Below, piece by piece: positions 5,813-39,045 of a stretch of DNA of 64,000 nt. The stretch spans positions 2,320-66,319 of the forward strand of contig CAWGAS010000026.1 of the NCBI GenBank assembly GCA_963820645.1. Direction: 5' to 3'. Below the pieces are notes generated by a model. The model saw only the letters and a program-made list of their open reading frames with translations. It searched no databases and was not told the origin of the DNA. Source of the DNA: an uncultured Acidobacteriota bacterium (GTDB lineage Bacteria > Acidobacteriota > Vicinamibacteria > Vicinamibacterales > 2-12-FULL-66-21). Numbering within the stretch: the stretch's first letter is position 1; every line of letters starts with the position of its first letter. The translations under genes were made by a program, and so were the position numbers.

Positions 5813-5838
5813 GGCTGTGTTGACCGCAAACCGTCTTG

Positions 5839-5912: not shown

Positions 5913-5946
5913 AGCTGACTGTCACAGGCGCCGCTAATCAGACACC

Positions 5947-7455: not shown

Positions 7456-7462
7456 CTGCGGC
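7401..7462 (+). repeat. 62-bp direct repeat, copy 1 (3' end of the radical SAM gene)
   Basis: ggaagagctggagaagatccgcgcgcggatgccgacgccgaagatgttcgggtagctgcggc; one mismatch to 11351-11412. Confidence 0.95.
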
Positions 7463-8160: not shown

Positions 8161-8230
8161 GATGCCGGGGGCACGGCCGGAGAAACGGCCAACTCGATTG
8201 CCGTGTAGGATGGCTCCTCTGAGGGTTCCC

Positions 8231-11236: not shown

Positions 11237-11350
11237 GCCCTCCAATTCAGAAGGGTTGCGCGCACGACGCGTGACCGTGACGTGGGCTTGTTTTCCTACC
11301 GCGCCGGGTTCGACAGAACCCGGCGTGTTTCATTATGTAATCGCAAGGGT

Positions 11351-11412
11351 GGAAGAGTTGGAGAAGATCCGCGCGCGGATGCCGACGCCGAAGATGTTCG
11401 GGTAGCTGCGGC
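11351..11412 (+). repeat. 62-bp direct repeat, copy 2 (orphan copy of the radical SAM gene 3' end)
   Basis: ggaagagttggagaagatccgcgcgcggatgccgacgccgaagatgttcgggtagctgcggc. Confidence 0.95.
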
Positions 11413-11471
11413 CTGGAGCAAAGGCGTGATTGAACACACACTCGACCAGGCGAAAATGGAGGCACTCGAAC

Positions 11472-12392: not shown

Positions 12393-12433
12393 CACGCGCT
12401 TGAAGCTGACGGCGCGCGTAGATTACGGAATGG
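12386..12433 (+). other. Truncated attC-like integron cassette site (left half)
   Basis: tccctgacacgcgcttgaagctgacggcgcgcgtagattacggaatg overlaps the stop codon and resembles the cctaac..cgcttgaagctgacggcg start of environmental attC sites; no matching right arm (GTTRRRY) follows. Confidence 0.5.
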
Positions 12434-12477
12434 TCAAGCTCGGATTCTGACGTCGGCAGGGTCGCTCTGCCCGGTGA

Positions 12478-12999
12478 TCACAGCTTGTACTTCTCTTCCA
12501 ACCACCATGGAATGTAGGCACGGGTTGTAAGGCCTTTCTTGCCGTGGCAGTCGAATCGCCATGTTTGTGCGAATTCAAACATCCGAAGGCCGTAAATCAT
12601 TCCATATTGCACTGCGGTGAGCAGCTTGTTATCGCGGTAGCGAACCCCTTCCGGGGTGACGCGGACATGTTCGTAGTACCCGTTCAGAATCGCCCGCCAC
12701 ATTTTCAGGTCCGCGAGAAAGACGTGCGTTCTATCCAGTTGTCCGGCCATCGACCACGGTGTCGGCACCCGCATCACAAAAACGCCTCGAGCACCCATGA
12801 CGCGGTGGAGTTCATCCAAAACAGTGTAAGGGTCCAGGAAGTGCTCGAGGAGCGATGAGGCTCTCATCTCGTCTGCGCACGCGTTGGCGAACGGCAGACA
12901 GGTGACATCCGCAACAGTCTGAACTCCGGGCACGCGGCGGATATCGATATTCACATAGCCCGCGAGCGGCTCGTTGCCTGAACCGACGTTGATTTTCAC
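12478..12999 (-). CDS. Class I SAM-dependent methyltransferase (type 11-like)
   Basis: GTG start; KINVGSG..GYVNID..ADVTCLPF..LLEHF..LDELHRV. Confidence 0.8.
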   Translation of the reverse strand: MKINVGSGNEPLAGYVNIDIRRVPGVQTVADVTCLPFANACADEMRASSLLEHFLDPYTVLDELHRVMGARGVFVMRVPTPWSMAGQLDRTHVFLADLKMWRAILNGYYEHVRVTPEGVRYRDNKLLTAVQYGMIYGLRMFEFAQTWRFDCHGKKGLTTRAYIPWWLEEKYKL

Positions 13000-13009
13000 G
13001 CACCGCCTG

Positions 13010-13810
13010 TTAGCGGAAGATGTCCGATTCGCCCTTGAGCTTTTCCCCTTCGTCCGCCATCCACTTCTGGAACTCCTCGGCGGTCTGGACGGTGACAAAT
13101 CCTCGCATCGCGGAATGGCCCAGACCGCAGAGCTGCGCGCAGGCGATCTGGTACTGGAACTCGGCATTCCCCTTCCGGGTCCGCATCTCCGCGGTCGTGA
13201 TGGTCGGGACGAACCAGAGGGGGATCGTGAGGCCGGGGATGGCGTCCTGCTTCACGCGGAACTCGGGGACGCCGAAGCTGTGGATGACGTCCTTGCTCCT
13301 GAGCCTGATGATGATCGGCTTGTTCACGGGCAGATAGAGCTGATTGAGCGTCGTGATGTCGTCCTTCCCGGCAGGATCGGCGCGATCGAGTCCCAGGGGG
13401 TTCGCCTGGGCGTCGAGCAGCTTGATGTCCGTGCGGCCGAATACCCCGTCGGGGCCGGCATAGTGGACGTTCCAGGCGAACTGCTCGGCGGTGACCCGAA
13501 CGACCAGCGATTCGCTGTCCGGTGGCATGCGATCGACCCTCGCGGCCCAGAGCGGGATCGCGAATCCGACCAGGAGAATCATTTCGACCACCGCCACGCC
13601 GATCTCGAGATAGCTCGAGGTGTGCGACTTGACCCCCGTGTAGTTCGCGACCGGGTTCCGCGAGCGCCGGAAACGGACCAGGGTGTAGGCGAAGAACCCT
13701 CCCCACCCGACGAACAGGATGAGCATGAACACATGAACCCAGCCGATCATGTCGTCGATCTGCCCGCCGTGAGCCGAGGCGAGCGCCGGGAGTCCGAGCC
13801 AGTCAGTCAT
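13010..13810 (-). CDS. coxB: Cytochrome c oxidase subunit II (CuA, no fused cytochrome c)
   Basis: AEQFAW, DVIHSF, KQDAIPG, CAQLCGLGHSAM; no CxxCH. Confidence 0.92.
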   Translation of the reverse strand: MTDWLGLPALASAHGGQIDDMIGWVHVFMLILFVGWGGFFAYTLVRFRRSRNPVANYTGVKSHTSSYLEIGVAVVEMILLVGFAIPLWAARVDRMPPDSESLVVRVTAEQFAWNVHYAGPDGVFGRTDIKLLDAQANPLGLDRADPAGKDDITTLNQLYLPVNKPIIIRLRSKDVIHSFGVPEFRVKQDAIPGLTIPLWFVPTITTAEMRTRKGNAEFQYQIACAQLCGLGHSAMRGFVTVQTAEEFQKWMADEGEKLKGESDIFR

Positions 13811-14136
13811 GATATTTTCGGCGCCCCCTGGAGCTCCGACCATTCGGTGTCGAGATCCACGTCCGCGATGTGCTTCGCGCGCTTGCGGAGATAGAGAAAG
13901 AAGGCCAGGAACGCGCCCTGCACCGCAAAGGTGATGACCAGCATCACCAGGACGCCGAGCTTCGTCCCGTCGATCATCGAGGTCTCCTCCGCCCCGAAGC
14001 ACGCCGGGCAGGCGAGGACGCTCGAGCTGCCGGCGATCACCACGAACGCGGCTGTGGCGAGAACCCGGCCGATCCTGAGGTCTTTCGTCTGAAGACTGAA
14101 GACCGAAGACAGAAGACCGGAGACCGGAGACTTCAT
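13807..14136 (-). CDS. Small membrane protein with exported CPAC motif
   Basis: Signal-like segment, then ACPACFG and one TM helix; ATGA overlaps on both sides. Confidence 0.75.
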   Translation of the reverse strand: MKSPVSGLLSSVFSLQTKDLRIGRVLATAAFVVIAGSSSVLACPACFGAEETSMIDGTKLGVLVMLVITFAVQGAFLAFFLYLRKRAKHIADVDLDTEWSELQGAPKIS

Positions 14137-14333
14137 CGCAGCGTCCTCGTCTTGCGCAGGAACCACGAGTCGTAGACAACCAGACCGGCCGACACGGCGA
14201 ACGCCGCGACGGCCGCGAGCAGATTTGCGACCCCGTTCCCCCGCCCGTACTGGCCCAGACACCAGACACCGAACAGCACCGCGAGGGCCGCGGAGAGGAG
14301 GATCAGCAGTGCGTGGAACCACCTGAGGTTCAT
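14133..14333 (-). CDS. Small two-TM hypothetical protein in the oxidase operon
   Basis: MNLRWFHALLILLSAALAVLFGVW..WFLRKTRTLR*; translationally coupled. Confidence 0.75.
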   Translation of the reverse strand: MNLRWFHALLILLSAALAVLFGVWCLGQYGRGNGVANLLAAVAAFAVSAGLVVYDSWFLRKTRTLR

Positions 14334-14704
14334 TAATGCGGACTCGGAGCCGGCGCGATTGGCGCGTCGCTCGGCGGTGCTTCGGGAATCCAGTAGCCGT
14401 TGCTGTGGGTGACGACGGGAAGGGCCAGCAGGGCGACGAAGAAGACAACGGTCAGCACGAGGACCGCGTAGATCAGCTTCTTCTCGGAGACGAGGTGCAT
14501 GAAGTAGCACGCCACCAGCGATCCCTTGATGGTCGCGACGAGCAGCGCCACGGTCACGGCCATCGCCACGGACAGGTGGAGGTAGGAGATCGCCACGGTG
14601 ACGATGGTCAGGACCATGAGCACCACGAAGACGGTGATGTAGACCCTGACGTGTCTGTCGATGTCGGCGGCGTGGTCGCTCGTCGCTGCGTGGTCGCTCG
14701 TCAT
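14333..14704 (-). CDS. Cytochrome c oxidase subunit IV (CtaF-like)
   Basis: Y..VFVVLMVLTIVTV..IKGSLVACYFMHL..EKK. Confidence 0.85.
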   Translation of the reverse strand: MTSDHAATSDHAADIDRHVRVYITVFVVLMVLTIVTVAISYLHLSVAMAVTVALLVATIKGSLVACYFMHLVSEKKLIYAVLVLTVVFFVALLALPVVTHSNGYWIPEAPPSDAPIAPAPSPH

Positions 14705-14705
14705 T

Positions 14706-14765
14706 ATTGCCTACAAAAAATAGAGATTGCCTACAAAAAATAGAGATGGCCTACAGAAGGTACAG
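14706..14765. repeat. Three tandem 20-bp units; the third is the real coxIII 3' end
   Basis: attgcctacaaaaaatagag x2 plus atggcctacagaaggtacag. Confidence 0.9.
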
Positions 14766-15341
14766 GGTCGGGAAGAGGAAGATCCAGACCAGATCCACGA
14801 AGTGCCAGAAGAGGCCCGAGTGCTCGACGCGGTTGGTGAACCACTCCGGGTTCGTCTTCCACTGCTTCGCGCCGGGGCCCCAGAAATAGGCGTTCACCGC
14901 CATCCCGCCCATGACGTGGAGCATGTGCAGACCGGTGAGCGTGAAGTAGATGGCGAGGAAGTTGTTCGTGCTCGGATAGAGGTGGTGCTCGAACTTGGCG
15001 CTGTATTCGAAGTACTTGACCACGAGGAAGACGAACCCGAGCAGGATCGTCGCCCCCATGTAGATCCGATAGGTCCCGAAGCGGCGGCGCATCAGCGACG
15101 CCCAGGCCATGACCATCGTGACAGAGGACAGGATCAGGACGATCGTGTTGAACGTGGCGAGCGGGACGTTCAGAATCGTGGCGCCCCGTGGCCAGCTCGT
15201 CGCCCCCGTCCGGATCAGGATGTAGCTCGCAAACAGGGCGCCGAACAGCATGACCTCTGAGGCCAGGAAGAGCCAGATGCCGATCTTGCCGTTGGTGAGA
15301 CCGGTGTCCCGGCGCACCTCGACGGTGTAGGGAATATCCAT
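14751..15341 (-). CDS. coxC: Cytochrome c oxidase subunit III
   Basis: GIWLFLASEVMLFGALF, TGLHMLHV, WHFVDLVWIFLFP. Confidence 0.92.
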   Translation of the reverse strand: MDIPYTVEVRRDTGLTNGKIGIWLFLASEVMLFGALFASYILIRTGATSWPRGATILNVPLATFNTIVLILSSVTMVMAWASLMRRRFGTYRIYMGATILLGFVFLVVKYFEYSAKFEHHLYPSTNNFLAIYFTLTGLHMLHVMGGMAVNAYFWGPGAKQWKTNPEWFTNRVEHSGLFWHFVDLVWIFLFPTLYLL

Positions 15342-15346
15342 CTCGA

Positions 15347-17107
15347 TCAGGCCTCCTGCTGCGGCAGGAAGTCCTTGGCCGCGCCGGGAACGCTGTACTG
15401 GTACGGCCCGCGGTGCGCTTCCGGGGTCACCAGGAAATTGCCGTGCGGGGGAGGCGAGGGAGCGGCCCACTCGATCGTCGTGGCCTGCCACGGGTTCGCG
15501 CCGGTCTTCGCCCCCTTCCAGATGCTCCAGAAGAAATTGAAGATGAAGGGAATCTGGAAGATCCCGAGGGTCCACGCGCCCCAGGAGGACACGACGTTCC
15601 AGTGGAGGAACGGCTGCGCGAAGTCGTAGGTCGCGCCACCGTCGTACAGCCGCCGGGAGACGCCGGCCATTCCCTGAATGAACATCGGCATGAAGACGAC
15701 GTTCATGCAGACGAGCGAGCCGGCGAAATGGATCTTGCCGAGCGTCTCGCTCATGGTCCGCCCGGTGGCCTTCGGGAACCAGTAGTAGATCCCCGCGAAG
15801 AGGGCGAAGATCGTTCCCGGAGCGACGACGTAGTGGAAGTGGGCGATGACGTAGTTCGTGTCGTGCAGCGGGATGTCCGTGGCGTTGAAGGCGAGCGGAA
15901 GCCCCGTGAGCCCGCCGATGCCGAACATCGGGAGAAAGCCGAGCGCGAAGAGCATGGGCGTGTTGAAGCGGATCGATCCGCCCCAGAGCGAGATGATCAG
16001 GGCCGTGAGGATCACGACCGACGGGATCGAGATGATCATCGTGGTCGTCTGGAAGAACGCCGCCATCTCCGTCCCCATGCCGGTCATGAACATGTGGTGC
16101 GCCCAGACGATGAACGACATGAAGCCGAGGAAGACCAGCGAGTAGACCATCGAACGGTAGCCCCACAGAGGCTTCCGCGTGTTGTTCGCGATGATCTCGG
16201 CCACGATGCCCATCGCCGGAAGGATCAGGACGTAGACTTCCGGGTGCGCCAGGAACCAGAACAGGTGCTGCCAGAGAATCGGGTTGCCTCCGCCGGCCAC
16301 GGGGAGGACCTGGCCGCTGACGACGAGGCCGCTCGGGAGGAAGAAGCTCGTGCCGGCCAGACGATCCATCAGCTGCAGGACCGCCGCGGCTTCGAGCGGC
16401 GGGAAGGCCAGGAGCAGGAGGAAGGCCGTGACGAGCTGGGTCCACACGAAGAAGGGGAACCGCATGAAGGTCAGCCCCTTGACGCGGAGCTGGATGATGG
16501 TCGTGATGAAGTTGATCGCTCCGAGCAGCGACGAGGTGATCAGGAAGACCATCCCGATGAGCCACGCCGTCTGGCCCGGCGCGATGATGGCGAGGGGCGT
16601 GTAGGAGGTCCACCCGGACTGCGCGGCCCCTCCGGGGAGGAGAAAACTGGCCAGCATGATCACGCCGCCGAGGAAGAAGCACTGGTAGCTCACCATGTTC
16701 AGCCTCGGGAAGGCCATGTCCGGGGCTCCAATCTGGAGCGGGACCACGAAGTTCCCGAATCCTCCGACGGCGAGAGGGACCACCCCGAGGAAGACCATGA
16801 TGGTGCCGTGCATCGCCCCGAGCTCGTTGTAGAAGTCGGGGAGCATCGTGCCGCCCGGCATCCGCGCCTCGCCGAAGAGGCCGCCGATCAGCGGCAGCGC
16901 GGCGCCCGGGTAGGCGAGCTGCCAGCGCATGAGCATCATCAGCGAAAAGCCGAAGAGGAGGAACAGGAGGCCGGTGACGGCATACTGGATGCCGATCATC
17001 TTGTGGTCGACGGAGAAGACCCACTTGCGCCAGAAGCCCGGCTCCTCGTGATGGGCTTCGTGCGCGCCGTGCGGCCTCGGGGGGGCGACAGCTCCTGGCT
17101 GACTCAT
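15347..17107 (-). CDS. coxA: Heme-copper oxidase subunit I, A1-like
   Basis: DHKMIG, MHGTIM, LFWFLAHPEVY, WAHHM, AHFHY, RR pair. Confidence 0.95.
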   Translation of the reverse strand: MSQPGAVAPPRPHGAHEAHHEEPGFWRKWVFSVDHKMIGIQYAVTGLLFLLFGFSLMMLMRWQLAYPGAALPLIGGLFGEARMPGGTMLPDFYNELGAMHGTIMVFLGVVPLAVGGFGNFVVPLQIGAPDMAFPRLNMVSYQCFFLGGVIMLASFLLPGGAAQSGWTSYTPLAIIAPGQTAWLIGMVFLITSSLLGAINFITTIIQLRVKGLTFMRFPFFVWTQLVTAFLLLLAFPPLEAAAVLQLMDRLAGTSFFLPSGLVVSGQVLPVAGGGNPILWQHLFWFLAHPEVYVLILPAMGIVAEIIANNTRKPLWGYRSMVYSLVFLGFMSFIVWAHHMFMTGMGTEMAAFFQTTTMIISIPSVVILTALIISLWGGSIRFNTPMLFALGFLPMFGIGGLTGLPLAFNATDIPLHDTNYVIAHFHYVVAPGTIFALFAGIYYWFPKATGRTMSETLGKIHFAGSLVCMNVVFMPMFIQGMAGVSRRLYDGGATYDFAQPFLHWNVVSSWGAWTLGIFQIPFIFNFFWSIWKGAKTGANPWQATTIEWAAPSPPPHGNFLVTPEAHRGPYQYSVPGAAKDFLPQQEA

Positions 17108-17127
17108 GAAGGCTGTTCTCCGGATCG

Positions 17128-17851
17128 CTACTTCGCGGGGAGGGCGAACTTGAAGTCCTGGGTCTTCTTATCCGGTGGCGCCAACCGTGACCGAGGCCGT
17201 CTGCGTCCCCAGCCTCTCGTGCCAGGCGGTAATCTCGTAGGTGCCGGCGTCGAGGCCGGAAAGCGTGAACTTCCCGTCCGCGCTCGTCACCGAGAAGAAA
17301 GGATGGGCGAAGACGCCGATGTAGGCAGTCATCCACGGGTGCACGTCGCACTTGATCTGGAAGACCGGCTCCGGCTTGTCGAACGTCGTGGTCGTCTCCT
17401 TGAGCGACGGCGGCATCGGCTTGTTGAACTGCCGGTTGACCTTGGGGAGGGAGTGGACGTTGTGGAGGATGCCGTCGGAGTTCAGGATCTTGTAGGACTG
17501 ACCGACCATGATCCCCTGCGCGTGCGGCACGTACTGACAGCCCTTCTGATCGAGAACCACCGGAGTCGCGGGAGCGGGGTAGGTCTTCCCGGCCGGAAGC
17601 CCCTTCGAGACCCAGACAATGATGTTCCCCATCGTGTTGCCGCTGCCGAGGACCAGCGCCTCGCCCGGCACGGGTGTCGAGTGCTTCTTGGCGCACGCGG
17701 GGTCGGCGTCCATGGCGAGCGGCTTGATGTTCGGGGCTTTCCCGGTGAAGGTGACGGTTCCGGTGACGGACGAGGCGGCGGACGCGATGCCCGGCCACAT
17801 CACCGCAACCAGCCCCGCCGCCAGCCACAACTTGTTCACTGTCCTACGCAT
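17128..17851 (-). CDS. Secreted cupredoxin-like / carboxypeptidase-regulatory-like protein with type-1 Cu motif (probable indel near 17170; ORF-track stop at 17168)
   Basis: AAGGAG RBS; signal peptide; LHNVH..KCDVHPWM; YEITAWHE; alternative frame ends DKKTQDFKFALPAK*. Confidence 0.8.
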
Positions 17852-17931
17852 GCTCGGCTCCTTGGTCATCGCAAAGCGCAAAAATCCTACAGTGGGCCGA
17901 CTGTACACCGCGGCCCGCCGTCCGTGCAACC

Positions 17932-19149
17932 CTACATGTTCTCGAAGGCCAGCGATTCGGCAAGCCTCGGGTCGCGCAGTGGAACGAGCGCCTGCCGCCG
18001 CATCAGCCAGCTCACGGCCGCCACGAAGCATCCGCCGACGGTCACGAGCGCGGCGACGTCCAGGACCGACGGACGGAATCCTTCGGGATGGAGCGTCGGC
18101 ATGACTTGCCAGTAGAGATCCACGAAGTGCATGGTGAGGATCCACGCTCCTCCGACCGCCAGGGTCGTGCCGTTCCGCTTGACGGTCCTGCCCCATCAGG
18201 TAGAAGAACGGCGCCACGAAATGTCCCGCCATGAGGAAGAGCGAGACCTGCAGCCAGGACCCTTCCATCCGCGTCTTGAACCAGATCGTCTCCTCCGGGA
18301 GGTTCCCGTACCACATGAGGAAGAACTGCGAGAAGGCGATATAGGCCCAGAACGCCGTGAACGCGAACAGGAACTTGCCGACATCGTGCAGGTGCTCGGG
18401 GGTGACGACCGTGTCCAGCAGCCCCGCCCCGCGCATCGCCACCACGACGACCGAGAGCAGCGCGATGAACCCCACGAAGGAACCCGCGAAGAAATAGACG
18501 CCGAACATGGTCGAGTACCAATGAGGCGTGAGCGACATGATCCAGTCGAACGAGGCGAAGGTCTGGGTCAGCGCGAGGACGATGATGGAGGGCCCGGCGA
18601 GGCGGCGCAGCCGGGCCGACACCCCGGGATCGCCCGTCGCGTCCTGACTGCGCGAGCCGCGGTAGTAGAGAAGGGCGATGAAGGACCAGCTGCCGAAGAA
18701 GACCGCCGCCCGGATCAGGAAGAACGGCACGTTGAGGTAAGGCGCCTTCCACTGAAGCAGGGCATCGTGCTCGGCCGCACCGGGGACGGTCCACGAGTAC
18801 AGATCGCGCAGGCCGAGGAGCAGCGGCAGGAAGAGCGCCGCCATCACTGGAAGCGTGACGAAGATCGTCTCCCCGATCCGTCGCAGCACGATCCCCCATC
18901 CGCCCTGGGACGCGTACTGGATCAGCACGAAAAAGAGCCCGCCGAGGGCCAGGCTCAGAAAGAACAGGAACGACACGAGCCACGAGAAGAAGAATTGCTT
19001 CGGATTCGCCGCCCCGAGAATCGCGCAGCGCGACCGCCCCCACCAGCGCGACGGACGGCGGCAATGACCGGCATGCGGTTCCACGGGTGCCCCGGCGGGA
19101 TCGTGACCTGCTCGGAGCGCAGCGCGGCGCGATCGTGGTCGTGGGTCAT
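17932..19149 (-). CDS. actF: Alternative Complex III subunit ActF, copy 1 (frameshifts near 19040 and 18190)
   Basis: WKAPYLNVPFFLIR, FDWIMSLTPHWYSTMFG, HDVGKFLFAF..FSQFFLMWYGNLPEE. Confidence 0.9.
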
Positions 19150-19740
19150 TCAGGACTCCAGGAGCTCGACGCTTCGGGCGCCCAGGGACTCCAGCAGCTT
19201 CCTGGTGGCCGACGGATCGAACCGGGGATCCCACGATTCGATCGAGATGAAGAAGGCGTCGTCGGTCACCCGCTCGAAGACCTTGGATTGGAAGAGCGGA
19301 TGATGGTGCATCGGCAACCGGTTCAGGCCGAACATGCCGAAGACGGCGCCGAGCGCGCCGAAGAGGACCGCGAGCTCGAAGGTGACCGGAATGAACGCGG
19401 GCCAGGTGAAGAACGGCTTGCCGCTAATCACGAGCGGGTAGGCGGTGGTGTGGACCCACCACTGCAGGCCGAACCCGGCCGCGGCCCCCATCAGTCCCAT
19501 GACGAGCACGATCCAGGGAAGCTGGGAGCGCCGGAGCCCCATCGCTTTCGGGAGGCCGTGGACGGGGAACGGGGTGTGGGCGTCCCACCGGGTGAAGCCC
19601 GCGTCGCGCACGCGCTCGCACGCGTGATAGAGGTTCGCCGGCGTCGCGAACTCGCCGAGGACGCCGTAGTACGGCCCGGCCGGGAGCCGCGGGACGAGCG
19701 GCAGCTGGAAGCTCCATCGTGACCCCGCCTTCGCGCCCAC
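19150..19740 (-). CDS. actD: ACIII subunit ActD (DUF3341), copy 1; start unclear, possibly fused to ActC
   Basis: [42 protein letters not shown]. Confidence 0.85.
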
Positions 19741-19766
19741 CTCCGCGCCGCCGATCACAGCCGGCG

Positions 19767-21192
19767 CTACGGTGGGCAAGCTCGGGCCGGGGTGCCGTGT
19801 TCGTCGCCGGCGCCGTAATGCGGATCGGCCTGCGGCAGGACGGTCTTGACCTCGGCGGTGGCCACCATCGGAAGGAAGCGCACGAACAGGCAGAACATCG
19901 TGAAGAAGAGCCCGAAGCTTCCGAGCAGGCACAGCACGTCCCACAGCGTGGGAGAGAAGTAGCCCCAGGACGAGGGAAGGAAGTCGCGGTGCAGCGACGT
20001 CACGATGATCACGAACCGCTCGAACCACATGCCGATGTTGATGACGATCGACACGACGAACAGGATCGGGATGCTCGTGCGCGCTTTCTTGAACCAGAAG
20101 ATCTGGGGGCTGATCACGTTGCAGCTGACCATGATCCAGTACGGCCCAGGCGTACGGTCCGCCCGCGCGGTTCAGGAACGTGAAGAGCTCGTAGGGGTTC
20201 CCGCTGTACCACGCGGTGAAGAACTCCGTGGCATAGGCGTAGCCGACCATCGTCCCCGTCACGAGCATGATCTTCGCCATGTAGTCGAAGTGCCGGAGGG
20301 TGACGATGTGCTCGAGGCGGAACGCCTTGCGGCAGATCACCATGAGCGTCAGCACCATCGCGAACCCGGAGAAGATCGCGCCCGCGACGAAGTAGGGCGG
20401 GAAGACCGTCGTGTGCCATCCAGGCAGGAGCGAGACCGCGAAATCCATCGAGACGATCGAGTGAACCGAGAGGACCAGCGGCGTCGCGAGGGCGGCGAGA
20501 ACGAGGTAGGCGGTCTCGTAGTGATGCCACTGCCGCACCGAGCCCCGCCATCCGAGGGCGAGGGCACCGTAGACGACCTGCCGGGTGCGGGTTTTCGCGC
20601 GATCGCGAATCGTCGCCAGGTCCGGGATCAGGCCGACGTACCAGAACAGGAACGAGACGGTTCCGTAGATGCTGACCGCGAAGACGTCCCAGAGGAGTGG
20701 GCTCCTGAAGTTGGGCCACATGTCCATCTGGTTCGGGAGCGGGAACATCCAGTAGGCGACCCAGACGCGTCCCACGTGGATCCCCGGGAACGTCATCGCG
20801 CACATGACCGCGAAGATGGTCATCGCCTCCGCCGAGCGGTTGATCGAGGTGCGCCATGTCTGGCGGAAGAGAAAGAGGATCGCCGAGATGAGCGTCCCGG
20901 CGTGGCCTATCCCGACCCAGAACACGAAGTTCGTGATGTCCCACGCCCAGCCGACGGGGACGTTGAGGCCCCAGATGCCGATCCCCTCCCAGAAAAGCCA
21001 GGAGACCGCGATGCCGAGAAGGCTGAGGAGCGCGAGGGAAGGGATGAAGAAGAGCCACCAGCCGATTGGCGTCGGCCGCTCGACCGGCTCGGCGACGACG
21101 TCGGTGATGGAATGGAAATCCGGCGAACGCAGGATCAGCGTCGGACGGCCCGCGACAGGGTTGTCTAGCAGCTCTGCTTCCGTCTGGGCCAA
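19767..21192 (-). CDS. actC: ACIII subunit ActC (NrfD family), copy 1 (frameshift near 20150)
   Basis: [48 protein letters not shown]. Confidence 0.92.
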
Positions 21193-21291
21193 GCCGTTTT
21201 CCCCGCTCCGACTGTTGAAAGTTGCTGTTTGTTATCATCTTGCATCGCCGGGAGTCAAGCCTAGAACCGCGCGCGGTATGATTCGGCGCGC

Positions 21292-22603
21292 GTGATCGGG
21301 CTCCGTCCATCCCTCACCCCCCTCAACGCGATCGCGATGGTCGCCGGCACGATCATCGGCGCGTCGATCTTCGTGCAGCCGTCGGAGATCGCCCGTCACC
21401 TCGACACGCCTGGCCAGATCATGCTCGTCTGGGTCGGTGTGCGGCGTGCTGACGCTGTTCGGCGCTTTCGTCTGCGCGGAGCTGGCGTCCGCATTCCCGC
21501 AGACCGGCGGTGTGTATGTGTTCCTGCGCGACTCGTTCTCGCCGCTCGCGGGGTTCCTGTGGGGCTGGGCGATGTTCTGGAGCATGCACTCCGGGATCGT
21601 CGCGGCCATTGCGGTCGTGTTCGCGCGGTACTTCGCCTTCTTCGTGCCGATCGGCGGCACGGGCGTCCGCGTAGTGGCGGTGGTCGTGATTCTCGCGCTG
21701 TCGGCGCTGAACTACGCCGGCGTACGCGCGGGCGGCCGCGTCCAGACGGCGCTCACCGGCGCGAAGCTTGCCGCCATTGCGGTTGTCGTCGTGGTCGGCG
21801 TCACCGCGTCAAATGGCGGGACCAGCGGGGCGCTGGCCGGTGCGGCGCTGCCGGTGGCCCGGGAAGGCGCGTCGGTCCACGATTTCCTGCTGGCCATGGT
21901 CGCCGGACTCTTCGCCTACGGCGGATGGCACATGGTCACCTACACGGCTGGAGAGACGCGGATGCCGGCGCGGACGATCCCTGTCGCGCTCCTCGCCGGC
22001 GTCGGGATCGTCACCGTCTCGTACGTCGCGCTCAATCTCGTGTACCTGCGCATTCTTCCGCTCGACGCGCTGCGATCGTCGACGCGCGTTGCCGCCGATG
22101 CCGCGGACGCCGTGCTCGGCCGCGGCGGATCGGCTGTCCTCGCCGCGCTGGTGATGGTGTCGTCGATCGGCGGGCTGACCGGCATCGTGCTGACCGGGCC
22201 GCGCGTGTACTACTCGATGGCCCAGGACGGTCTCGCCCCGCGATGGCTCGGCTACGTCCACCCGGTTCATCAGACGCCGTCGCACGCCATCATCGCGCAG
22301 GCGGTCTGGTCCAGCGTCCTGGCCGCGACCGGCGCCTATCGCGAGCTCTTCACCCGCGTGATCTACACGGAGTGGCTGTTCTTCGCGTTGATGGCCGCGG
22401 GCCTGTTCGTGCTCAGGCGCCGGCCGGACTACAACCCGTCGTACCGCACGTGGGGCTATCCGGCGGTCCCGCTGATCTTCATCGTCGCGTCGCTCGCCAT
22501 CGTGATCAACCAGTTCATCAGCACCCCGGCCGAAGCGGCCATCGGGCTCGGGCTGGTCGCGGCTGGAGCACCGATCTACTATCTGCGGCATGCGTATCGT
22601 TGA
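21292..22603 (+). CDS. APC-family amino acid permease (frameshift near 21438)
   Basis: GTIIGASIF, AELASAFPQTGGVY, FAYGGW, PRVYYSMA, YRTWGYP. Confidence 0.9.
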
Positions 22604-26226: not shown

Positions 26227-26237
26227 TTTTGTCCCGT

Positions 26238-26266
26238 TTGACACTTTGTGAAAAGTTTCACATTAT
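26238..26266 (+). promoter_or_regulatory. Sigma70-like promoter of the act operon with overlapping Rex/CRP-type operator
   Basis: TTGACA (26238-43), 17-bp spacer, CATTAT (26261-66); palindrome TTGTGAA-AAGT-TTCACAT at 26246-26263. Confidence 0.75.
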
Positions 26267-26396
26267 GAGTGACGAGCGATGGACGGTCCCGGGGTCGGCG
26301 CCGGCCCGCCCGCCGGCCTGCACGGCGCCGCTGTCCGCTTCTGCAATACCCCGGTTTCGAGTAGGCTCTTGGGAACTTGGCGCGGACGTCGAGACG

Positions 26397-27057
26397 ATGA
26401 GTCAGATCTTCCATCGCTACTCGAACATCTACTCCCGGCTCAGCATCCTGGCGGCGGTAGGGTTCGTGGCCGTCCTCGGCGCCTCGGTCGGTCTGCTCCA
26501 TCTGTCCGGCTACAACACCGGCCAGAGCCAGTTCGTCGATCAGCCGGTCCAGTTCAGCCATGCCCACCACGTCGGCGGCATGGGGATCGACTGCCGCTAC
26601 TGCCATACGTCGGTCGAAGAGTCGGCGTTCGCCAATATCCCGCCGACCAAGACCTGCATGAACTGCCACTCGCAGATCTGGACCAACGCCCCGATCCTCG
26701 AGCCGGTCCGCGCCAGCTTCCGCGACAACAAGCCGCTGCGCTGGACGCGGGTCCACGATCTGCCGGATTTCGTGTATTTCAACCACAGCATCCACGTGAA
26801 GCAAGGGGTCGGCTGCGCCACGTGCCACGGGCCGGTCGACAAGATGCCGCTCATGTACCAGGAGAACCCCGCTCACGATGACCTGGTGCCTGGACTGCCA
26901 CCGCGATCCCGCGAAGTACATCCGCCCGCGCGATCAGGTCTTCAACATGGCCTAGGAGCGCCCGGCCGACGACCCGGACTTCGGCGAGCGTCTCGTCAAG
27001 GAATACAAGATCGCGAGCGTCGAACAGCTGACGAGCTGCTCGACATGCCATAGGTAA
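26397..27057 (+). CDS. actA: ACIII pentaheme cytochrome c ActA (frameshift near 26870; in-frame TAG at 26953)
   Basis: CRYCH, CMNCH, CATCH, CLDCH, CSTCH; QPVQFSHAHH; LPDFVYFNHSIH. Confidence 0.92.
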
Positions 27058-27140
27058 GCTACCAGCTTCCAGCTTCCAGCTGCCAGCTTGGAGCGTCAGG
27101 AAGCGGAGGCGTAGCGGGAAGCGGGAAGCTGGAAGCTGAA
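27056..27140. repeat. Heptamer inverted repeat (CCAGCTT)n/(GGAAGCT)n
   Basis: ccagcttccagcttccagctgccagctt ... gggaagcgggaagctggaagctg. Confidence 0.8.
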
Positions 27141-27146
27141 TTGAGC

Positions 27147-31660
<4,514 letters not shown>

Positions 31661-31671
31661 GCGCGTGAGCC

Positions 31672-32223
31672 ATGGATCACACACCAGCCGGTTCGACGCT
31701 CTACGGCGTGATGGCCGAGTTCGACGATCCGACGGCGCTCGTCGAGGCGGCGCGCCGCACCTACGACGAGGGCTATCGGCAGTTCGACTCGTTCTCGCCG
31801 TTTCCGATCGACGACATCTTCAGCGCGATGCACCTCGAGGATCGGCGGGTGCCGTGGCTGGTCCTCGGCGGCGGGATCGCGGGCCTGCTGACCGGGCTCG
31901 GGCTCCAGGAGTGGGTGTCGGCCTACGCGTACCCGTTGAACATCGGCGGCCGGCCGAATCTGAGCTGGCCGATGTTCGTGCCGGTCACGTTCGAGCTGAC
32001 GATTCTCTTCGCGGCCTTCGCGGCGGTCTTCGGGATGTTCATCCTGAACGGGCTGCCGATGCCGTATCACCCGGTGTTCAACGTGGAGCGGTTCACCGCG
32101 CACGCCAGCCAGGACAGCTTCTTCCTGGCGATCGAGGCCGTCGATCCGAAGTTCGATCGGCAGGCGACGCGGGCGTTCCTGCAGGACCTCGGGGCGAAGG
32201 AAGTGAACGATGTCGAAGCGTAG
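31672..32223 (+). CDS. actD: ACIII subunit ActD (DUF3341), copy 2
   Basis: YGVMAEF, SPFPI, YPLNIGGRP, PVTFELT, PYHPVF. Confidence 0.92.
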   Translation: MDHTPAGSTLYGVMAEFDDPTALVEAARRTYDEGYRQFDSFSPFPIDDIFSAMHLEDRRVPWLVLGGGIAGLLTGLGLQEWVSAYAYPLNIGGRPNLSWPMFVPVTFELTILFAAFAAVFGMFILNGLPMPYHPVFNVERFTAHASQDSFFLAIEAVDPKFDRQATRAFLQDLGAKEVNDVEA

Positions 32224-32885
32224 AAGCGCTGGGCCGAGCGCGAAGTCGCGAGGCGCGCGCGATGGCTCGCTGGTCGCGGACCTGCGCCGCTCGGCGAGGC
32301 TCGTGCGGCTGTGCCATGCTCGGCGCTGGCGCGTCGGGCTGCCGCCAGGACATGCACAATCAACCCAAGTACCGCGGGCTGCGCCCGAGCGTGTTCTTCA
32401 CCGACGGCGCGAGCGCGCGGCCGCGGGTCGAGGGGACGGTCGCGCGCGGGACGCTGCAGGAAGACGACGCGTTCTTCACCGGCAAGGTCAGCAACGCGAC
32501 CGTGAAGGAGCTGCCGTTTGCGATCGACGAGCACGTCCTCGATCGCGGCCAGGAGCGGTTCAACATCTACTGCTCGCCGTGCCATGGCCGGACGGGCAAG
32601 GGCGACGGCATGGTGGTGCGGCGCGGGTACCGCCAGCCGCCGTCGTTCCACAGCGACCGGCTGCTGCAGGCCGACGCCGGATACATCTTCGACGTGATCA
32701 CGAACGGGTTCGGCGTGATGCCGGACTACAAGGCGCAGATCGCGCCCCGCGACCGGTGGGCGATTGTCGCGTACCTCCGCGCGCTGCAACTGAGCCAGCA
32801 CGCGTCGGCGTCCGACATCGAGGGCGGCGATCCGACGAAGCCGCCCCAACCCGGCGGTGGCGCGCGCGCGCCCGAGAAGCATTGA
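32210..32885 (+). CDS. actE: ACIII monoheme cytochrome c lipoprotein ActE (start uncertain)
   Basis: Lipobox-like ASGC, then RQDMHNQPKY, GTVARG, CSPCHG, GFGVMP. Confidence 0.88.
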
Positions 32886-32887
32886 GG

Positions 32888-34081
32888 ATGGAAACACACA
32901 CTGTGAACACCGACGTGCCCGCCCTTGCGCGCCTGCAGCAGAGGGCGCTTGTCGTCGGATTCTGGGGGCTGGTGGCCGGGGGGATCGGCGGGGTCTTTGC
33001 GCCCGCTCAGTTCTTCAGGTCCTGGCTCATCGGGGTCCTCTTCTGCCTCGGGCTGTCGCTGGGATCGCTCGCGCTCCTGATGCTGCAGCACATGTCGGGC
33101 GGGCAGTGGGGGCTCGTCGGGCGCCGCATCTTCGAGGCGGCGTCGCGGACCCTCCCGCTCGTGGCGCTGGCGTTCGTGCCGCTGCTGTTCGGGCTGCCGA
33201 GCCTCTACAAATGGGCGCGGCCGGAGCTCGTCAGCACCGACGGCATCCTGCAGTTCAAGGCGCCGTACTTGAACGTGCCGTTCTTCGTCGGCCGGGCGGT
33301 GTTCTACTTCGCCGTCTGGATGCTGTGTTCCTGGCTGCTGAACAAATGGTCGGCGGGCCAGGATCGCGGCGAGGTGGCGGTCAAGCCGAGCGACACGCTG
33401 CGGTTCCGCCAGGTGAGCGCGCCGGGGCTCCTCGTCTACGTCCTGACGATGACGTTCGCGTCCGTCGACTGGGTCATGTCGCTCGACCCGACCTGGTACT
33501 CGACGATTTTCGGACTGATTTTCGTGGCCGGCCAGGGGCTCTCGGGCCTGTCGCTCGTCATCATCGTGCTGTCCATGCTCAGCGGGACCGAGCCCTACGC
33601 CAGGTACCTCAGGCCGGGGCACTTTCTCGATCTGGGCAAGCTGCTTCTGGCCTTCGTGATGCTGTGGGCCTACTTCGCGTTCTCGCAGTTCCTGATCATC
33701 TGGGCGGGCAACCTGCCGGAGGAGATTCCGTTCTTCGTGAACCGCCTGAATCACGGCTGGCAGTACGTGTCGCTGGCGGTGCTGCTCGGCCACTTCGTGC
33801 TCCCGTTCGTGCTGCTGCTGTCGCGGGATCTGAAGAAGCGGCCCTTGCTGCTCGCCAGGGTCGCCGCCGTGGTCCTCGTCATGCGGCTCGTCGACCTGGT
33901 GTGGCTCGTCGGGCCGATGTTCGAGAGCGGCAGGTTCCCCATCCACTGGATGGACGTCGCGCTGCCGATGGGCCTCATCGGCGTCTGGCTCTTCCTGTTC
34001 GCGCGTCTGCTCCGGGGCCGGGCGCTTCTGCCTCTCAACGATCCGTTCTTCAAGGAGGCGTTCGCGCATGACGTCCACTGA
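32888..34081 (+). CDS. actF: ACIII subunit ActF, copy 2
   Basis: KAPYLNVPFF, VDWVMSLDPTWYSTIFG, DLGKLLLAF..FSQFLIIWAGNLPEE. Confidence 0.92.
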   Translation: METHTVNTDVPALARLQQRALVVGFWGLVAGGIGGVFAPAQFFRSWLIGVLFCLGLSLGSLALLMLQHMSGGQWGLVGRRIFEAASRTLPLVALAFVPLLFGLPSLYKWARPELVSTDGILQFKAPYLNVPFFVGRAVFYFAVWMLCSWLLNKWSAGQDRGEVAVKPSDTLRFRQVSAPGLLVYVLTMTFASVDWVMSLDPTWYSTIFGLIFVAGQGLSGLSLVIIVLSMLSGTEPYARYLRPGHFLDLGKLLLAFVMLWAYFAFSQFLIIWAGNLPEEIPFFVNRLNHGWQYVSLAVLLGHFVLPFVLLLSRDLKKRPLLLARVAAVVLVMRLVDLVWLVGPMFESGRFPIHWMDVALPMGLIGVWLFLFARLLRGRALLPLNDPFFKEAFAHDVH

Positions 34082-34649
34082 TCATTCGTCGCCGGAGCTG
34101 GACAACGAGGACGTTGCGCACGAGGAGTCGGATGTCGACGTCCGGACGATTCTCCGGTTCGGCGTGGGGATCGTCGCGGTGGTGGCGACTGCGTTCCTGC
34201 TGATGTGGGGGCTGTTCCGCGTCCTCACCCACCAGGCGGCCGCGAACGACCCGCAGCTGTCGCCGCTCGCCCGGCCGACGTGCCCGTATGCCGACCTCGA
34301 GAAGTGCCCCGAGCTGCTTCCGGCGGGGCCGCACCTGCAGACCAACGAGCCCGAGGCCCTCGCGAAGATCCGGATGACGGAGGCGAAGGCGCTCGAGGGT
34401 TACGGGTGGGTCAATCAGGCCGCGGGCGTCGCGCACATACCGATCGCCGAGGCGAAAAAGCTGATCGTGCAGCGCGGGCTGCCGGTCCGGGCCGCCCCTG
34501 TTCTCGATCCGCGGGCGGGCACGCACGCTCCCGCGATGGGCGAGTCGTCGGGTGGACGAACGATCGGAGTGCCGGCGCCCGCAGTCGGGACGCCGCCGGC
34601 GCCTGCTCCGCCCGCTTCGCCCGAACCGCATGGCGGCGGACACAAGTAG
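34068..34649 (+). CDS. actG: ACIII subunit ActG-like single-TM protein
   Basis: HEESDV, one TM, P.LQ, YGWV..AHIPIAEA; position between actF and SCO. Confidence 0.75.
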   Translation: MTSTDHSSPELDNEDVAHEESDVDVRTILRFGVGIVAVVATAFLLMWGLFRVLTHQAAANDPQLSPLARPTCPYADLEKCPELLPAGPHLQTNEPEALAKIRMTEAKALEGYGWVNQAAGVAHIPIAEAKKLIVQRGLPVRAAPVLDPRAGTHAPAMGESSGGRTIGVPAPAVGTPPAPAPPASPEPHGGGHK

Positions 34650-34666
34650 AGCGGACACGCGATCCG

Positions 34667-34751
34667 GTAGTGTCCGGCTTCAGCCGGACCAGACAAGCGG
34701 TGGCGTCCGGCTTCAGCCGGACCAGCAGGTCCGCCTGAAGGCGGACGCCAC
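34667..34751. repeat. GTAG-type REP palindromes (3 units, BIME-like)
   Basis: gtagtgtccggcttcagccggac; gtggcgtccggcttcagccggac; inverted gtccgcctgaaggcggacgccac. Confidence 0.85.
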
Positions 34752-34779
34752 CGGAATCAGGCCGACAGGACAAAAGACC

Positions 34780-35646
34780 GTGACGTTGAGAAGAGCGATA
34801 GGGGCAATCGGGATGACGGCCATCGTGCTGGCCGCGCCGGCCCCTGCGCGCGCGCAGCCCGTGTCGCCCGAGCCGGGCGACGCGGCCACGGCGAAGCCCG
34901 GGCTGCTGAAGCAGATCGGCATCGATCAGCGGCTGCAGGAGCAGGTCCCGCTCGATCTCGCCTTCAAGGACGAAGCCGGCCGCGACGTGCGGCTCGGGGA
35001 CTACTTCGGCAAGCGGCCGGTCATCCTGGTGCTCGGCTACTACGAGTGCCCGATGCTCTGCACGCAGGTGCTCAACGCCGCCGTCAGCGCGCTCAGCCTG
35101 CTGACCTTCGACGCCGGACGGGAGTTCGACGTCGTGGCGGTCAGCATCAACCCGAAGGAAACCCCGGCCCTGGCCGCGCAGAAGAAGCAGTCCTACATGG
35201 AGCGCTACGACCGGCCGCACACGGTCGAGGGATGGCACTTCCTGACGGGCACGGAAGCCTCGATCAAGCGCCTCGCCGCGTCGGTCGGCTTCCGCTACGC
35301 GTACGACGAGGAGATCCAGCAGTACGCGCACGCCGCCGTCATCGAGGTGCTCACGCCCCGCGGGGTCATCTCGAAATACTTTTACGGGATCGAGTTCTCG
35401 GCGCGCGATCTCAAGTTCGGCCTGATGGAAGCGTCCGAGGAGCGGATCGGCACGGCCGTCGACAGCGCCCTGCTGCTCTGCTACCACTACGACCCGACGA
35501 CCGGAAAGTACGGCGCGTCCGCGATCGCCGCCGTCCGCGTCGGGGCGGTGGCGACCGTGCTGGCTTTCCTGTCGTTTCTGTACATCAGCCTCAAACGAGA
35601 GCGGGCGGCAACGCGACGCGGCACTGTGACGGTTAATCGAACCTGA
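34780..35646 (+). CDS. SCO1/SenC family copper chaperone
   Basis: YYECPMLC (CxxxC), WHFLTG, YAHAA; signal peptide and C-terminal TM. Confidence 0.9.
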   Translation: MTLRRAIGAIGMTAIVLAAPAPARAQPVSPEPGDAATAKPGLLKQIGIDQRLQEQVPLDLAFKDEAGRDVRLGDYFGKRPVILVLGYYECPMLCTQVLNAAVSALSLLTFDAGREFDVVAVSINPKETPALAAQKKQSYMERYDRPHTVEGWHFLTGTEASIKRLAASVGFRYAYDEEIQQYAHAAVIEVLTPRGVISKYFYGIEFSARDLKFGLMEASEERIGTAVDSALLLCYHYDPTTGKYGASAIAAVRVGAVATVLAFLSFLYISLKRERAATRRGTVTVNRT

Positions 35647-35648
35647 CG

Positions 35649-36618
35649 ATGTTCACGAACTTTCCACTGTTTCCGCAACAGGCTTCGGTCCAGGCCTCGC
35701 AGGTCGACGGCATCTATTTCTTCATGCTGGCCGTCACCGCGTTCTTCTCCCTGCTGATCGCGGGGCTCGTCGTGTTCTTCGCGGTGAAGTTCCGGCGGCG
35801 CCACGAAGACGAGGTCGGCGTGCCCATCCACGGGTCGCTCGCGCTCGAGCTGCTGTGGACGATCATCCCGTTCCTCATCACGCTGGTGATGTTCGGCTGG
35901 GGCGCGAAGGTCTTCTTCGAGCTCTACCGCGCTCCGGCCGGCGCGATGGAGGTCTACGTCGTCGGGAAGCAGTGGATGTGGAAGGTGCAGCACATGGACG
36001 GGCAGCGCGAGATCAACGAGCTGCACGTCCCGCTCGGCCGGCCGGTGAAGCTGATCATGGGATCCGAGGACGTGCTGCACAGCTATTTCATTCCGGCGTT
36101 CCGGGTGAAGGCCGACGTCATCCCGGGCCGCTACAACATGCTCTGGTTCACCGCGTCGAAGCCCGGCCGGTATCCCCTGTTCTGCGCCGAGTATTGCGGC
36201 ACGAACCACTCGGGGATGATCGGGACGATCATCGTCGATGGAGCCGGCCGAGTTCCAGGCGTGGGTGGGGGGCGGCCGATCCTCGGACACGCCGGCGGCC
36301 GCCGGGGAAAAGCTGTTCCAGAGCCAGGGGTGCGTCGCCTGCCATCGTCAGGGCGCGACGATTCAGGGGCCGCTGCTCACGAACATCTTCGGGTCCACCG
36401 TGCCGCTGCAGGGCGGGGCCACGGTCGTCGCCGACGAGGCGTACATCCGCGAGTCGATCGTCAATCCCCAGGCCAAGATCGTCGCCGGCTTCCAGCCGCT
36501 CATGCCGACGTTCCAGGGGCTGGTTTCGGAAGAGCAGTTGATGCAGCTCATCGCCTACATCAAGTCGCTGAGCACGCCGGGCGGTGCGCCCGCAGGGGCT
36601 CACGCGCCGGCGAAATAG
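35649..36618 (+). CDS. coxB: Cytochrome c oxidase subunit II with fused cytochrome c (caa3-type; frameshift near 36237)
   Basis: KQWMW, DVLHSY, CAEYCGTNHSGM; C-terminal CVACH..MP. Confidence 0.93.
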
Positions 36619-36668
36619 ATCGAACAACGCGTTGCGCGGGGCACCGGCTTCGCAGCTGAACGGACACT

Positions 36669-38262
<1,594 letters not shown>

Positions 38263-38270
<8 letters not shown>

Positions 38271-39045
38271 GGGTCGCCCGTCCGACCACTACCGGAGGTC
38301 GGGAGTTTCGGAGGGCCACCCCTCCGAGCACTATCCCGGCCCGATGCACCAGCCGCCGGTGCACCGGGAGCGGGCCCATGCCGACGTGCACGTCGCGCAC
38401 CATCCGAAGCTGCAGCACCATTTCGACGACATGGCGCAGCAGGCCGAGGCGTCGACGCTCGGCATGTGGGTGTTCCTGGTCACCGAAATCATGTTCTTCG
38501 GCGGCCTGTTCATGTGCTACCTGGTCTACCGGACGGCGTCGCCGGAGGGCTTCGCGGAGGCCAGCCATCACCTCAACGTGGTCTGGGGCGCCGTCAACAC
38601 GATCGTCCTGATTGTCAGCTCGCTGACGATGGCGCTCGCGGTGCGCGCCGCGCAGACGAGCGCGCCGCCGAAGACGCAGGTGTTCTGGCTCGTGGCGACG
38701 ATGTTTTTCGGGATCGCGTTCCTGGGCGTCAAGGCCATCGAGTACGCCGACAAGTTCGATCATCACCTCGTCCCCGGCCCCAACTTCGTGTGGGAAGGCA
38801 AGCATCCGGCCGCGGCGGAGATGTTCTACTCGCTGTACTTCTGCATGACGGGGCTGCACGCGCTGCACATGGTCATCGGGCTCGGGATCATGACCGTCAT
38901 CGCGATCATGGCGTGGCGGCGGCAGTTCGACGCCGACTACTACACGCCCGTCGAGGTGTCCGGCCTGTACTGGCACTTCGTCGACATCGTCTGGATCTTC
39001 CTGTTTCCGCTGCTCTACTTGATCGGCGGACACGTCGTCGACTGA
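38263..39045 (+). CDS. coxC: Cytochrome c oxidase subunit III
   Basis: [31 protein letters not shown]. Confidence 0.92.

Follow-up and report, generated by a model that had tools for sequence, protein, structure and literature searches.

An operon that encodes only three membrane proteins of an alternative complex III (ACIII), next to a copper protein and a terminal oxidase, raises the question of how electrons could leave such a complex. The operon lies in a 64,000-nucleotide window of DNA from an uncultured Acidobacteriota bacterium (G000:C26:2320-66319, about 66% G+C, where G000 is the assembly under study and C26 its contig). It reads actC-actD-actF-cupredoxin-coxI-coxIII-coxIV-orfTM-orfCPAC-coxII on the minus strand, from 21192 to 13010. 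Here, the act genes of this operon and their kin are termed S-type, and the complete actABCDEF operon at 26229-39045 is termed the full operon. An initial annotation of the window had proposed either that the S-type membrane core borrows ActA, ActB and ActE from the full operon, or that it forms an undescribed route in which copper replaces the iron-sulfur clusters and c-type hemes. We consider it quite probable that the locus is the membrane half (ActC/D/F) of a split second ACIII lineage, co-transcribed with a periplasmic, amicyanin-like cupredoxin and an A1-type aa3 oxidase, and that the ActA/B/E half is encoded in a separate block. The S-type operon is a conserved, widespread arrangement and is neither a heme-free ACIII nor a categorically new route.

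This reading draws on where relatives keep their actA, actB and actE genes. In genome G214, actA-actB-actE precedes the S-type actCDF on the same strand and is followed, after actCDF, by the cupredoxin and cox genes. Locus L144 has the order A-B-E-C-D-F, loci L092 and L121 have C-D-F-A-B-E, and in the Binatia locus L112 an E-B-A block divergently adjoins C-D-F-cupredoxin-cox. In these five loci relatives do hold actA/B/E with this operon, an outcome that the initial annotation had set against its own proposals. Stand-alone E-B-A blocks, with no C/D/F within the fetched 20 kb, were found at all six such loci examined (G371, G412, G220, G004, G032 and G390). The actABE block is fused to S-type actCDF in some genomes, adjacent to it in others and distant in the rest.

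Gene counts agree with this picture. Two full-length ActB genes accompany two actCDF sets in G004, G014, G015, G032, G390, G395, G198, G315, G165, G297, G045 and G214. G371, G412, G363 and G220 each pair one ActB with one actCDF set, and no strong ActD match other than the S-type one occurs in them; three of these genomes (G412, G363 and G220) are 98-99% complete in 1-3 contigs. With one S-type ActD and one full-length ActB each, these four genomes imply an ACIII encoded in two places. A complete act operon, whose co-occurrence the initial annotation had asked about, is present in the 12 genomes that carry both types. Each of the 17 other carriers checked has an ActB for every actCDF set, counting G403, which has two ActB genes and an S-operon contig that is cut by contig ends.

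The ActB proteins of the ABE blocks also group together in a tree. A FastTree phylogeny of 58 ActB sequences has a branch, with an SH-like support of 97, that sets the 10 ABE-block proteins apart from the 48 encoded in ABCDEF operons. This tree leaves out frame-broken or split genes (high-scoring segment pair under 600 amino acids or open reading frame (ORF) under 850), including those of G000 and G412. The S-type ActF, which shares 44-45% identity with the full-operon ActF, was placed within an ActF tree of 110 rows, where direct D-F adjacency requires 3 changes compared with 36.6 when labels are shuffled. In the same tree, a cupredoxin gene follows 44 of the 51 D-F ActF genes and none of the 56 D-E-F ones.

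The features of the operon and its context are as follows.

19767..21192, minus strand: actC (S-type), NrfD-like quinol-binding membrane subunit; Pfam NrfD PF03916; contiguous in relatives.
19150..19758, minus strand: actD (S-type); PF11821, E 6e-67, 225 bits against a cut-off of 25.7; stop TGA at 19152-19150.
17932..19149, minus strand: actF (S-type), second NrfD-like membrane subunit and paralogue of ActC; ATG at 19149; three frame breaks.
17128..17869, minus strand: cupredoxin gene, predicted amicyanin-like type-1 copper domain plus a CarboxypepD_reg-like beta domain, with an N-terminal signal or anchor; called from ligands, structure model, Foldseek and phmmer.
15347..17107, minus strand: coxI, A1-type heme-copper oxidase subunit I; PF00115, E 2e-133; motif AHPEVY.
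14751..15341, minus strand: coxIII; PF00510, E 2e-18.
14333..14704, minus strand: coxIV, prokaryotic subunit IV; PF03626, E 6.5e-11; TIGR02229.
14133..14333, minus strand: orfTM, a 66-amino-acid two-helix membrane ORF; start overlaps the coxIV stop; 38-94% identity at the same position in relatives.
13807..14136, minus strand: orfCPAC, a membrane ORF of about 109 amino acids; start overlaps the orfTM stop; 32-86% identity at the same position in relatives.
13010..13810, minus strand: coxII, aa3-type; CuA site present, cytochrome c domain absent; PF00116.
26229..39045, plus strand: context, complete actABCDEF-orf-SCO1-coxII(c)-coxI(A2)-coxIII operon; Pfam, tblastn, CVACH in CoxII and YSHPAV in CoxI.

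Pfam, NCBIfam and ORF evidence bears out the gene order given by the initial annotation, and the absences it reported stand as well. The actD stop is followed directly by the ATG of actF (19149-19147), so that no actE lies between them, and neither actA nor actB is present in the operon, where a divergent amino-acid permease ORF (21292-22650, plus strand) starts 99 bp from the actC start at 21192. The CxxCH motif is absent from all three minus-strand frames over 13010-21192. The initial annotation's cupredoxin and A1 oxidase calls also prove correct, given invariant ligands, amicyanin matches in Foldseek and the HPEV motif. Start and stop codons overlap at the coxIV/orfTM, orfTM/orfCPAC and orfCPAC/coxII junctions, as expected for one operon. 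A scan of 12300-21600 returned no promoter-like site, and 11 terminator-like sites against 5.5 expected, nearly all within coding sequence. The coxI product scores 577 bits with TIGR02891, under the curated cut-off of 671, and coxII scores 141.8 bits with TIGR02866, just under 147.7. No family match in Pfam or NCBIfam was found for orfTM and orfCPAC, which keep their position throughout the phylum, and none in NCBIfam for the cupredoxin, ActD and ActF. The CPAC motif of orfCPAC lies at residue 42 of 108 translated residues. A SCO1 gene is absent from the S-type operon and present in the full operon (34552-35646); because of this absence, it may be speculated that the CPAC protein serves CuA assembly.

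The S-type genes encode what an ACIII membrane module comprises, namely ActC with its quinol-site residues, ActD and ActF. In phmmer searches, the N-terminal 350 residues of S-type ActC match the solved Rhodothermus marinus subunit 6f0k_C with an E value of 2.8e-150 and 6btm_C with 2.1e-127. The available text of the structural account names His139 and Ser164 (R. marinus numbering) as quinol-site residues of ActC (PMC8076601). Both are aligned and identical in S-type ActC compared with 6f0k_C, which answers the initial annotation's query about their conservation. The same available text places no redox cofactor in ActC or ActF of the solved ACIII (PMC8076601). If ActB and ActA are lacking, no exit for electrons from the quinol site is known. 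The further parts of a complete ACIII, pentaheme ActA, iron-sulfur ActB and monoheme ActE, are not encoded in 13010-21192. A tblastn search of the whole G000 assembly yields a single copy each of ActA, ActB and ActE, which belong to the full operon. The two ActD and two COX1 genes of the genome lie within the window.

The cupredoxin is predicted, from its sequence and structure model, to bind type-1 copper. Residues H136, C174, H177 and M180, with C-x2-H-x2-M spacing, are invariant in 20 of 20 aligned orthologues and paralogues, and we take them to be the copper ligands; C59 and C111 are invariant in the same 20 sequences. The AlphaFold2 model has a mean pLDDT of 86, with residues 1-29 below 50. 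Foldseek places amicyanins at the top of its matches to this model (E 5.9e-5 to 2e-4, with 2gb2 at 5.9e-5), followed by plastocyanins and pseudoazurins, and amicyanin 1aaj superposes on it with an rmsd of 2.0 over 90 columns (TMt 0.66-0.69). A phmmer match to 5fc9 has an E value of 0.007, and amicyanin has the same C-x2-H-x2-M spacing. CarboxypepD_reg is matched by the C-terminal part under the cut-off. The cupredoxin family is very large: clustering at 90% identity gives at least 6,614 clusters, many of which are labelled 'plastocyanin' by the Joint Genome Institute (JGI), and members occur in 231 of the phylum's 401 genomes. Lipoprotein-like N-termini are common among the paralogues. At five loci (L069-L071, from G412, G363 and G220, and L105 and L106), a second, divergently oriented cupredoxin paralogue with a lipoprotein-like N-terminus lies just upstream of actC.

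The oxidase of the S-type operon differs from that of the full operon in both subunit I and subunit II. CoxI carries FLAHPEVYV, compared with FYSHPAVYI in the full-operon copy; we assign these to the A1 and A2 types, respectively, taking xHPEV to be the A1 motif of the D-channel glutamate and YSHPxV the A2 motif in the Pereira-Santana-Teixeira classification. All 19 CoxII sequences compared share H177, C224, C228, H232 and M235, which are presumably the CuA ligands. A cytochrome c domain with a CxxCH motif, the hallmark of a caa3 oxidase, is fused to CoxII in the full operon, where CVACH lies at 36331, and is lacking here. The fixed place of the cupredoxin gene before coxI, the absence of a cytochrome c domain from CoxII and the existence of cupredoxin-cox modules without actCDF suggest that the cupredoxin is the electron entry partner of the oxidase. 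Complex prediction with cupredoxin residues 30-233 and the CoxII periplasmic domain (residues 92-266) gave scores of 0.02 and 0.03 against a mark of 0.32, and weighs neither way.

In the proposed mechanism, menaquinol would be oxidised at the ActC site, and electrons would then pass via the ActB iron-sulfur clusters and the ActA/ActE hemes to the type-1 copper of the cupredoxin. From there, they would flow to CuA of CoxII, heme a, a3-CuB and finally O2. The pentaheme ActA, iron-sulfur ActB and monoheme ActE of the same lineage would be supplied from the separate actABE block, and the cupredoxin would stand in for the cytochrome c domain that the CoxII of the adjacent caa3 operon carries. What the analysis shows directly is which genes are present and in what order, how far this is conserved, that actABE co-occurs, and which copper, CuA and quinol-site residues are kept; that the two halves join physically and that the cupredoxin acts as carrier are proposals.

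The locus in G000 itself is best understood beside its closest relative, G004, which has 95-97% DNA identity and is syntenic over the whole region. In G004, an actE-actB-actA block, with a cydA-like gene and a cytochrome c gene, lies about 25 kb beyond coxII. None of the 56 contigs of G000 contains an orthologue of the G004 DNA past 595,858, the point at which C26 ends. The G000 assembly has 70.63% marker completeness and 6.58 Mb, compared with 9.6 Mb for G004. Together, the position of the G004 block, the contig end and the incomplete assembly suggest that the actABE block of G000 is unassembled rather than absent from the organism. Blocks of G004 C14:584,411-595,858 are reordered in the same orientation in G000 C26:1-14709 (window 1-12390 plus the 2.3 kb before it), which could be a rearrangement or a misassembly.

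Several observations weigh against the reading of a split second ACIII. No second ActA, ActB or ActE, cydA-like or partner cytochrome c gene was found in G000's 56 contigs, and the claim of a dedicated partner in this organism rests on the relatives and on the incompleteness of the assembly. The trees were built with FastTree only, and the loci were picked by ActF similarity or fetched for this analysis. Five genomes contain cupredoxin-coxI-III-IV-orfTM-orfCPAC-coxII without S-type actCDF (L054 in G016, L056 in G182, L057 in G329, L067 in G160 and L068 in G313), so the oxidase module is not strictly dependent on this ACIII. In addition, the start of S-type actD is unusual: neither G000 nor G004 has an ATG, GTG or TTG at the position where the actD ATG of G032, G014, G015 and G371 overlaps the stop codon of actC, and the nearest in-frame GTG codons lie at 19758 and 19740 in G000, with none nearby in G004 (L035).

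An alternative is that the organism has only one actABE and that S-type ActC/D/F assemble with the ActA/B/E encoded by the full operon nearby, so that one peripheral arm would serve two membrane cores. The single ActA, ActB and ActE in the 56 contigs and the 5 kb between the two operons fit this view, and the available part of a study of Chloroflexus aurantiacus proposes that its two ACIII forms share modules (PMC9316378). Among the carriers, however, only G000 combines two actCDF sets with a single ActB; in each of the 17 others, either an ABE-block type ActB is present or the ActB genes equal the actCDF sets in number, and G004 has a dedicated block at a position that C26 does not reach. S-type and full-operon subunits are only 44-61% identical. 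We regard sharing as unlikely on these grounds, and what survives of the borrowing proposal of the initial annotation is that the membrane core needs ActA/B/E in trans; relatives use an actABE block of its own lineage rather than that of the neighbouring full operon. Its other proposal, a heme- and iron-sulfur-free quinol:O2 route from ActC/D/F through the cupredoxin directly to aa3, would explain why the operon encodes neither a CxxCH motif nor an iron-sulfur protein and why a cupredoxin gene separates actF from coxI at 44 of 51 D-F loci. That route is very improbable, given the cofactor-free ActC and ActF in the available description of the solved complex (PMC8076601), the lack of any ActB-less carrier among the 17 checked, and the fusion or adjacency of ABE to S-type actCDF in the five loci named above. 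Cupredoxin-cox modules without actCDF also fit an oxidase carrier rather than an ACIII subunit.

It could also be that the act genes are decaying pseudogenes and that their frame breaks are real. Five single extra bases, which had gone unnoticed in the initial annotation, break the S-type frames, at about 20142 in actC, at about 19062, 19021 and 18190 in actF, and at about 17180 in the 3' end of the cupredoxin gene. As a result, actC reads in one frame over 21192-20143 and in another over 20141-19770, ending in a TAG at 19769-19767, and the true stop of the cupredoxin gene is at 17130-17128. Break density is similar in the full operon, which has at least 7 in 12.8 kb (one in actA, at least four in actB, one in actC at about 30830 and one in coxII at about 36230), and the permease has one near 21440. 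The orthologues of G014, G032 and G015 are unbroken, and actC and actF are each contiguous in one frame in these three genomes and in G004. The S-type protein pieces are 95-98% identical to G004 without internal stops, and the ActF pieces from three frames are 80-88% identical to the intact 404-amino-acid ActF of G032. Low marker completeness in few contigs also fits indel errors. The breaks appear, from these comparisons, to be best read as assembly errors in an assembly that is indel-rich throughout; decay is improbable, and the pseudogene reading was rejected given comparable breaks in neighbouring genes and intact relatives. A search of public sequencing runs returned none with more than 26% of the sampled words.

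The split arrangement, with actCDF bound to the cupredoxin and oxidase genes, recurs well beyond this genome, as the gene-order survey suggested by the initial annotation shows. The complete order is present in G004, G014 and G015, of the same genus, and in G032, of another family of the order. Of 20 loci fetched across the phylum for their top-scoring cupredoxin matches, 12 have it; among the other eight, one is cut by a contig end, five are the cupredoxin-cox modules without actCDF, and two have other contexts. Among 80 species-level loci retrieved from GTDB genomes by S-type ActF alignment, 30 have the full order, mostly in Vicinamibacteria, and the remaining 50 comprise 42 D-E-F, two C-D-F-A-B-E, one A-B-E-C-D-F, two other D-F orders and three with ActF only. 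Close carriers are labelled Vicinamibacterales or Vicinamibacteria, and distant ones Thermoanaerobaculia, Polarisedimenticolaceae, Binatia and 'Deltaproteobacteria'. Identity among the S-operon proteins of the carrier loci is 52-98%, indicating that the genes are under selection. ActD occurs in 36 of 41 relatives, and most members of the genus carry the full-operon type only, which makes the S-type operon an accessory second system. The tallies on relatives and on the 401 genomes include genomes flagged as unpublished (G022; G086, G188 and G063), and no specific claim depends on them.

Some loci in this survey have features of their own. Three genomes with the cupredoxin-cox module and no S-type actCDF (G016, G182 and G329) have one ActB and one ActD each, and in G313 (L068) the module lies near a cydA-like gene and its partner cytochrome c. 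The metagenome-assembled genomes of L101, L107 and L111 (C-D-F-cupredoxin) and of L134, L145 and L146 (A-B-C-D-E-F) are labelled Bifidobacteriaceae, cyanobacterium, Verrucomicrobiia or Rickettsiales, labels that probably reflect wrong taxonomy or mis-binned contigs. A third, more distant ACIII-like cluster occurs in G412 (L076, C1:2,072,000-2,091,999), encoding a multiheme c protein, a molybdopterin-like protein, an iron-sulfur protein, an NrfD-like protein with 43% identity to ActC and a weak ActD-like match (E 7e-16); no ActE or ActF match was found in L076.

Compared with the canonical ACIII-caa3 superoperon of Rhodothermus marinus and Flavobacterium johnsoniae, a copy of which lies at 26229-39045, the S-type operon shares homologous ActC/D/F and an A-family oxidase directly downstream. 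It differs in lacking actA/B/E, in the abutting actD and actF, and in the cupredoxin gene between actF and coxI. Its oxidase is of the A1 type (HPEV) with a CoxII free of cytochrome c, whereas the canonical one is an A2 (YSHPAV) caa3 enzyme. The cupredoxin domain has the fold and the His...Cys-x2-His-x2-Met spacing of amicyanin, plastocyanin and pseudoazurin. Unlike these small blue-copper carriers, it is embedded in a protein of about 245 amino acids with a CarboxypepD_reg-like domain and the invariant C59 and C111.

A division of ACIII has precedents. In the available part of one account, the Cr operon of Chloroflexus aurantiacus contains actABEG and no actCDF, it is proposed to share the ActCDF of the Cp operon, and the copper protein auracyanin is the acceptor in this ACIII system (PMC9316378). 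The division into ABE and CDF modules is attributed to Refojo et al. 2010 in the accessible text of a further source (PMC3534657). As far as these partial accounts go, ABE and CDF have been treated as distinct modules before. The Chloroflexus Cr operon splits ACIII at the same seam and has a blue-copper carrier downstream of the complex (PMC9316378, available text). The present operon is its mirror image, with CDF alone and tied to an oxidase, and its relatives have one ABE per CDF rather than a shared CDF. The cupredoxin here is amicyanin-like with an extra beta domain. Within the papers it covered, a literature search returned no account of an actCDF-cupredoxin-aa3 operon or of an ABE/CDF split in Acidobacteriota, and a prior description may exist.

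The actABE blocks of relatives have neighbours of their own, in most cases a cydA-like gene and a cytochrome c gene downstream. In G032 (L081:5013-12813), the block is followed by a 640-amino-acid cydA-like membrane protein and then by a membrane cytochrome c of about 300 amino acids. The cydA-like protein matches PF01654 with an E value of 2.3e-22 over the first 239 of 418 profile positions only, and the solved CydA 9r2g_A with 7.8e-14. By tblastn, the cydA-like gene occurs in 11 loci and the partner cytochrome c in nine; these include all six stand-alone ABE loci as well as L092 and L121, and L112 has the cydA-like gene only. The loci that combine ABE with the cydA-like gene are L081 (G032), L074, L075, L077, L079 with L080, L082, L092, L121 and L112. 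In G000, tblastn found neither the cydA-like gene nor the partner cytochrome c.

From its sequence, the cydA-like protein resembles a bd-like oxidase of the OR-N type that would be coupled to the electron-transfer arm of ACIII. OR-N is a family of cytochrome bd-like oxidases (bioRxiv 10.1101/2021.01.16.426971), and Nitrospirales have clusters of actAB1B2CDE with OR-N5 (PMC12342949), both according to the available portions of these sources. The likeness to such ACIII-OR-N clusters, as described there, lies in the relatives' combination of ABE, cydA-like and cytochrome c genes. In contrast to them, the bd-like gene travels with ABE only and CDF travels with aa3, and the cluster was not found in the window or the G000 assembly.

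These associations raise the possibility, held tentatively and judged rather doubtful, of a two-part hub in which actCDF is transcribed with the cupredoxin and the A1 aa3 oxidase, and actABE with a bd-like (OR-N-like) oxidase that lacks a quinol site and a membrane cytochrome c. All four modules occur together in Binatia L112, and elsewhere they are shuffled as blocks. If such a hub exists, one quinol-oxidising complex would feed a copper-mediated and a heme-c-mediated branch, and the cell could tune these branches, and possibly its iron and copper demand, through separate regulation of the two halves.

For annotation, actCDF without actABE is open to being taken for a broken ACIII or a new heme-free enzyme, and the survey indicates that it is neither; indel-rich, incomplete assemblies can likewise mimic pseudogenes and missing subunits. 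The split ACIII leads to the predictions that ActABE would co-purify with S-type ActCDF, that the cupredoxin would reduce the aa3 oxidase, and that the two blocks may respond differently to O2, copper and iron. Bacteria of the Vicinamibacteria and related Acidobacteriota abound in soil, and most of what is said of their respiratory chains has been inferred from annotation. The arrangement described here points to a conserved and widespread two-block encoding of ACIII among them, in which each block is tied to its own terminal oxidase and a cupredoxin would take the place of the fused cytochrome c.

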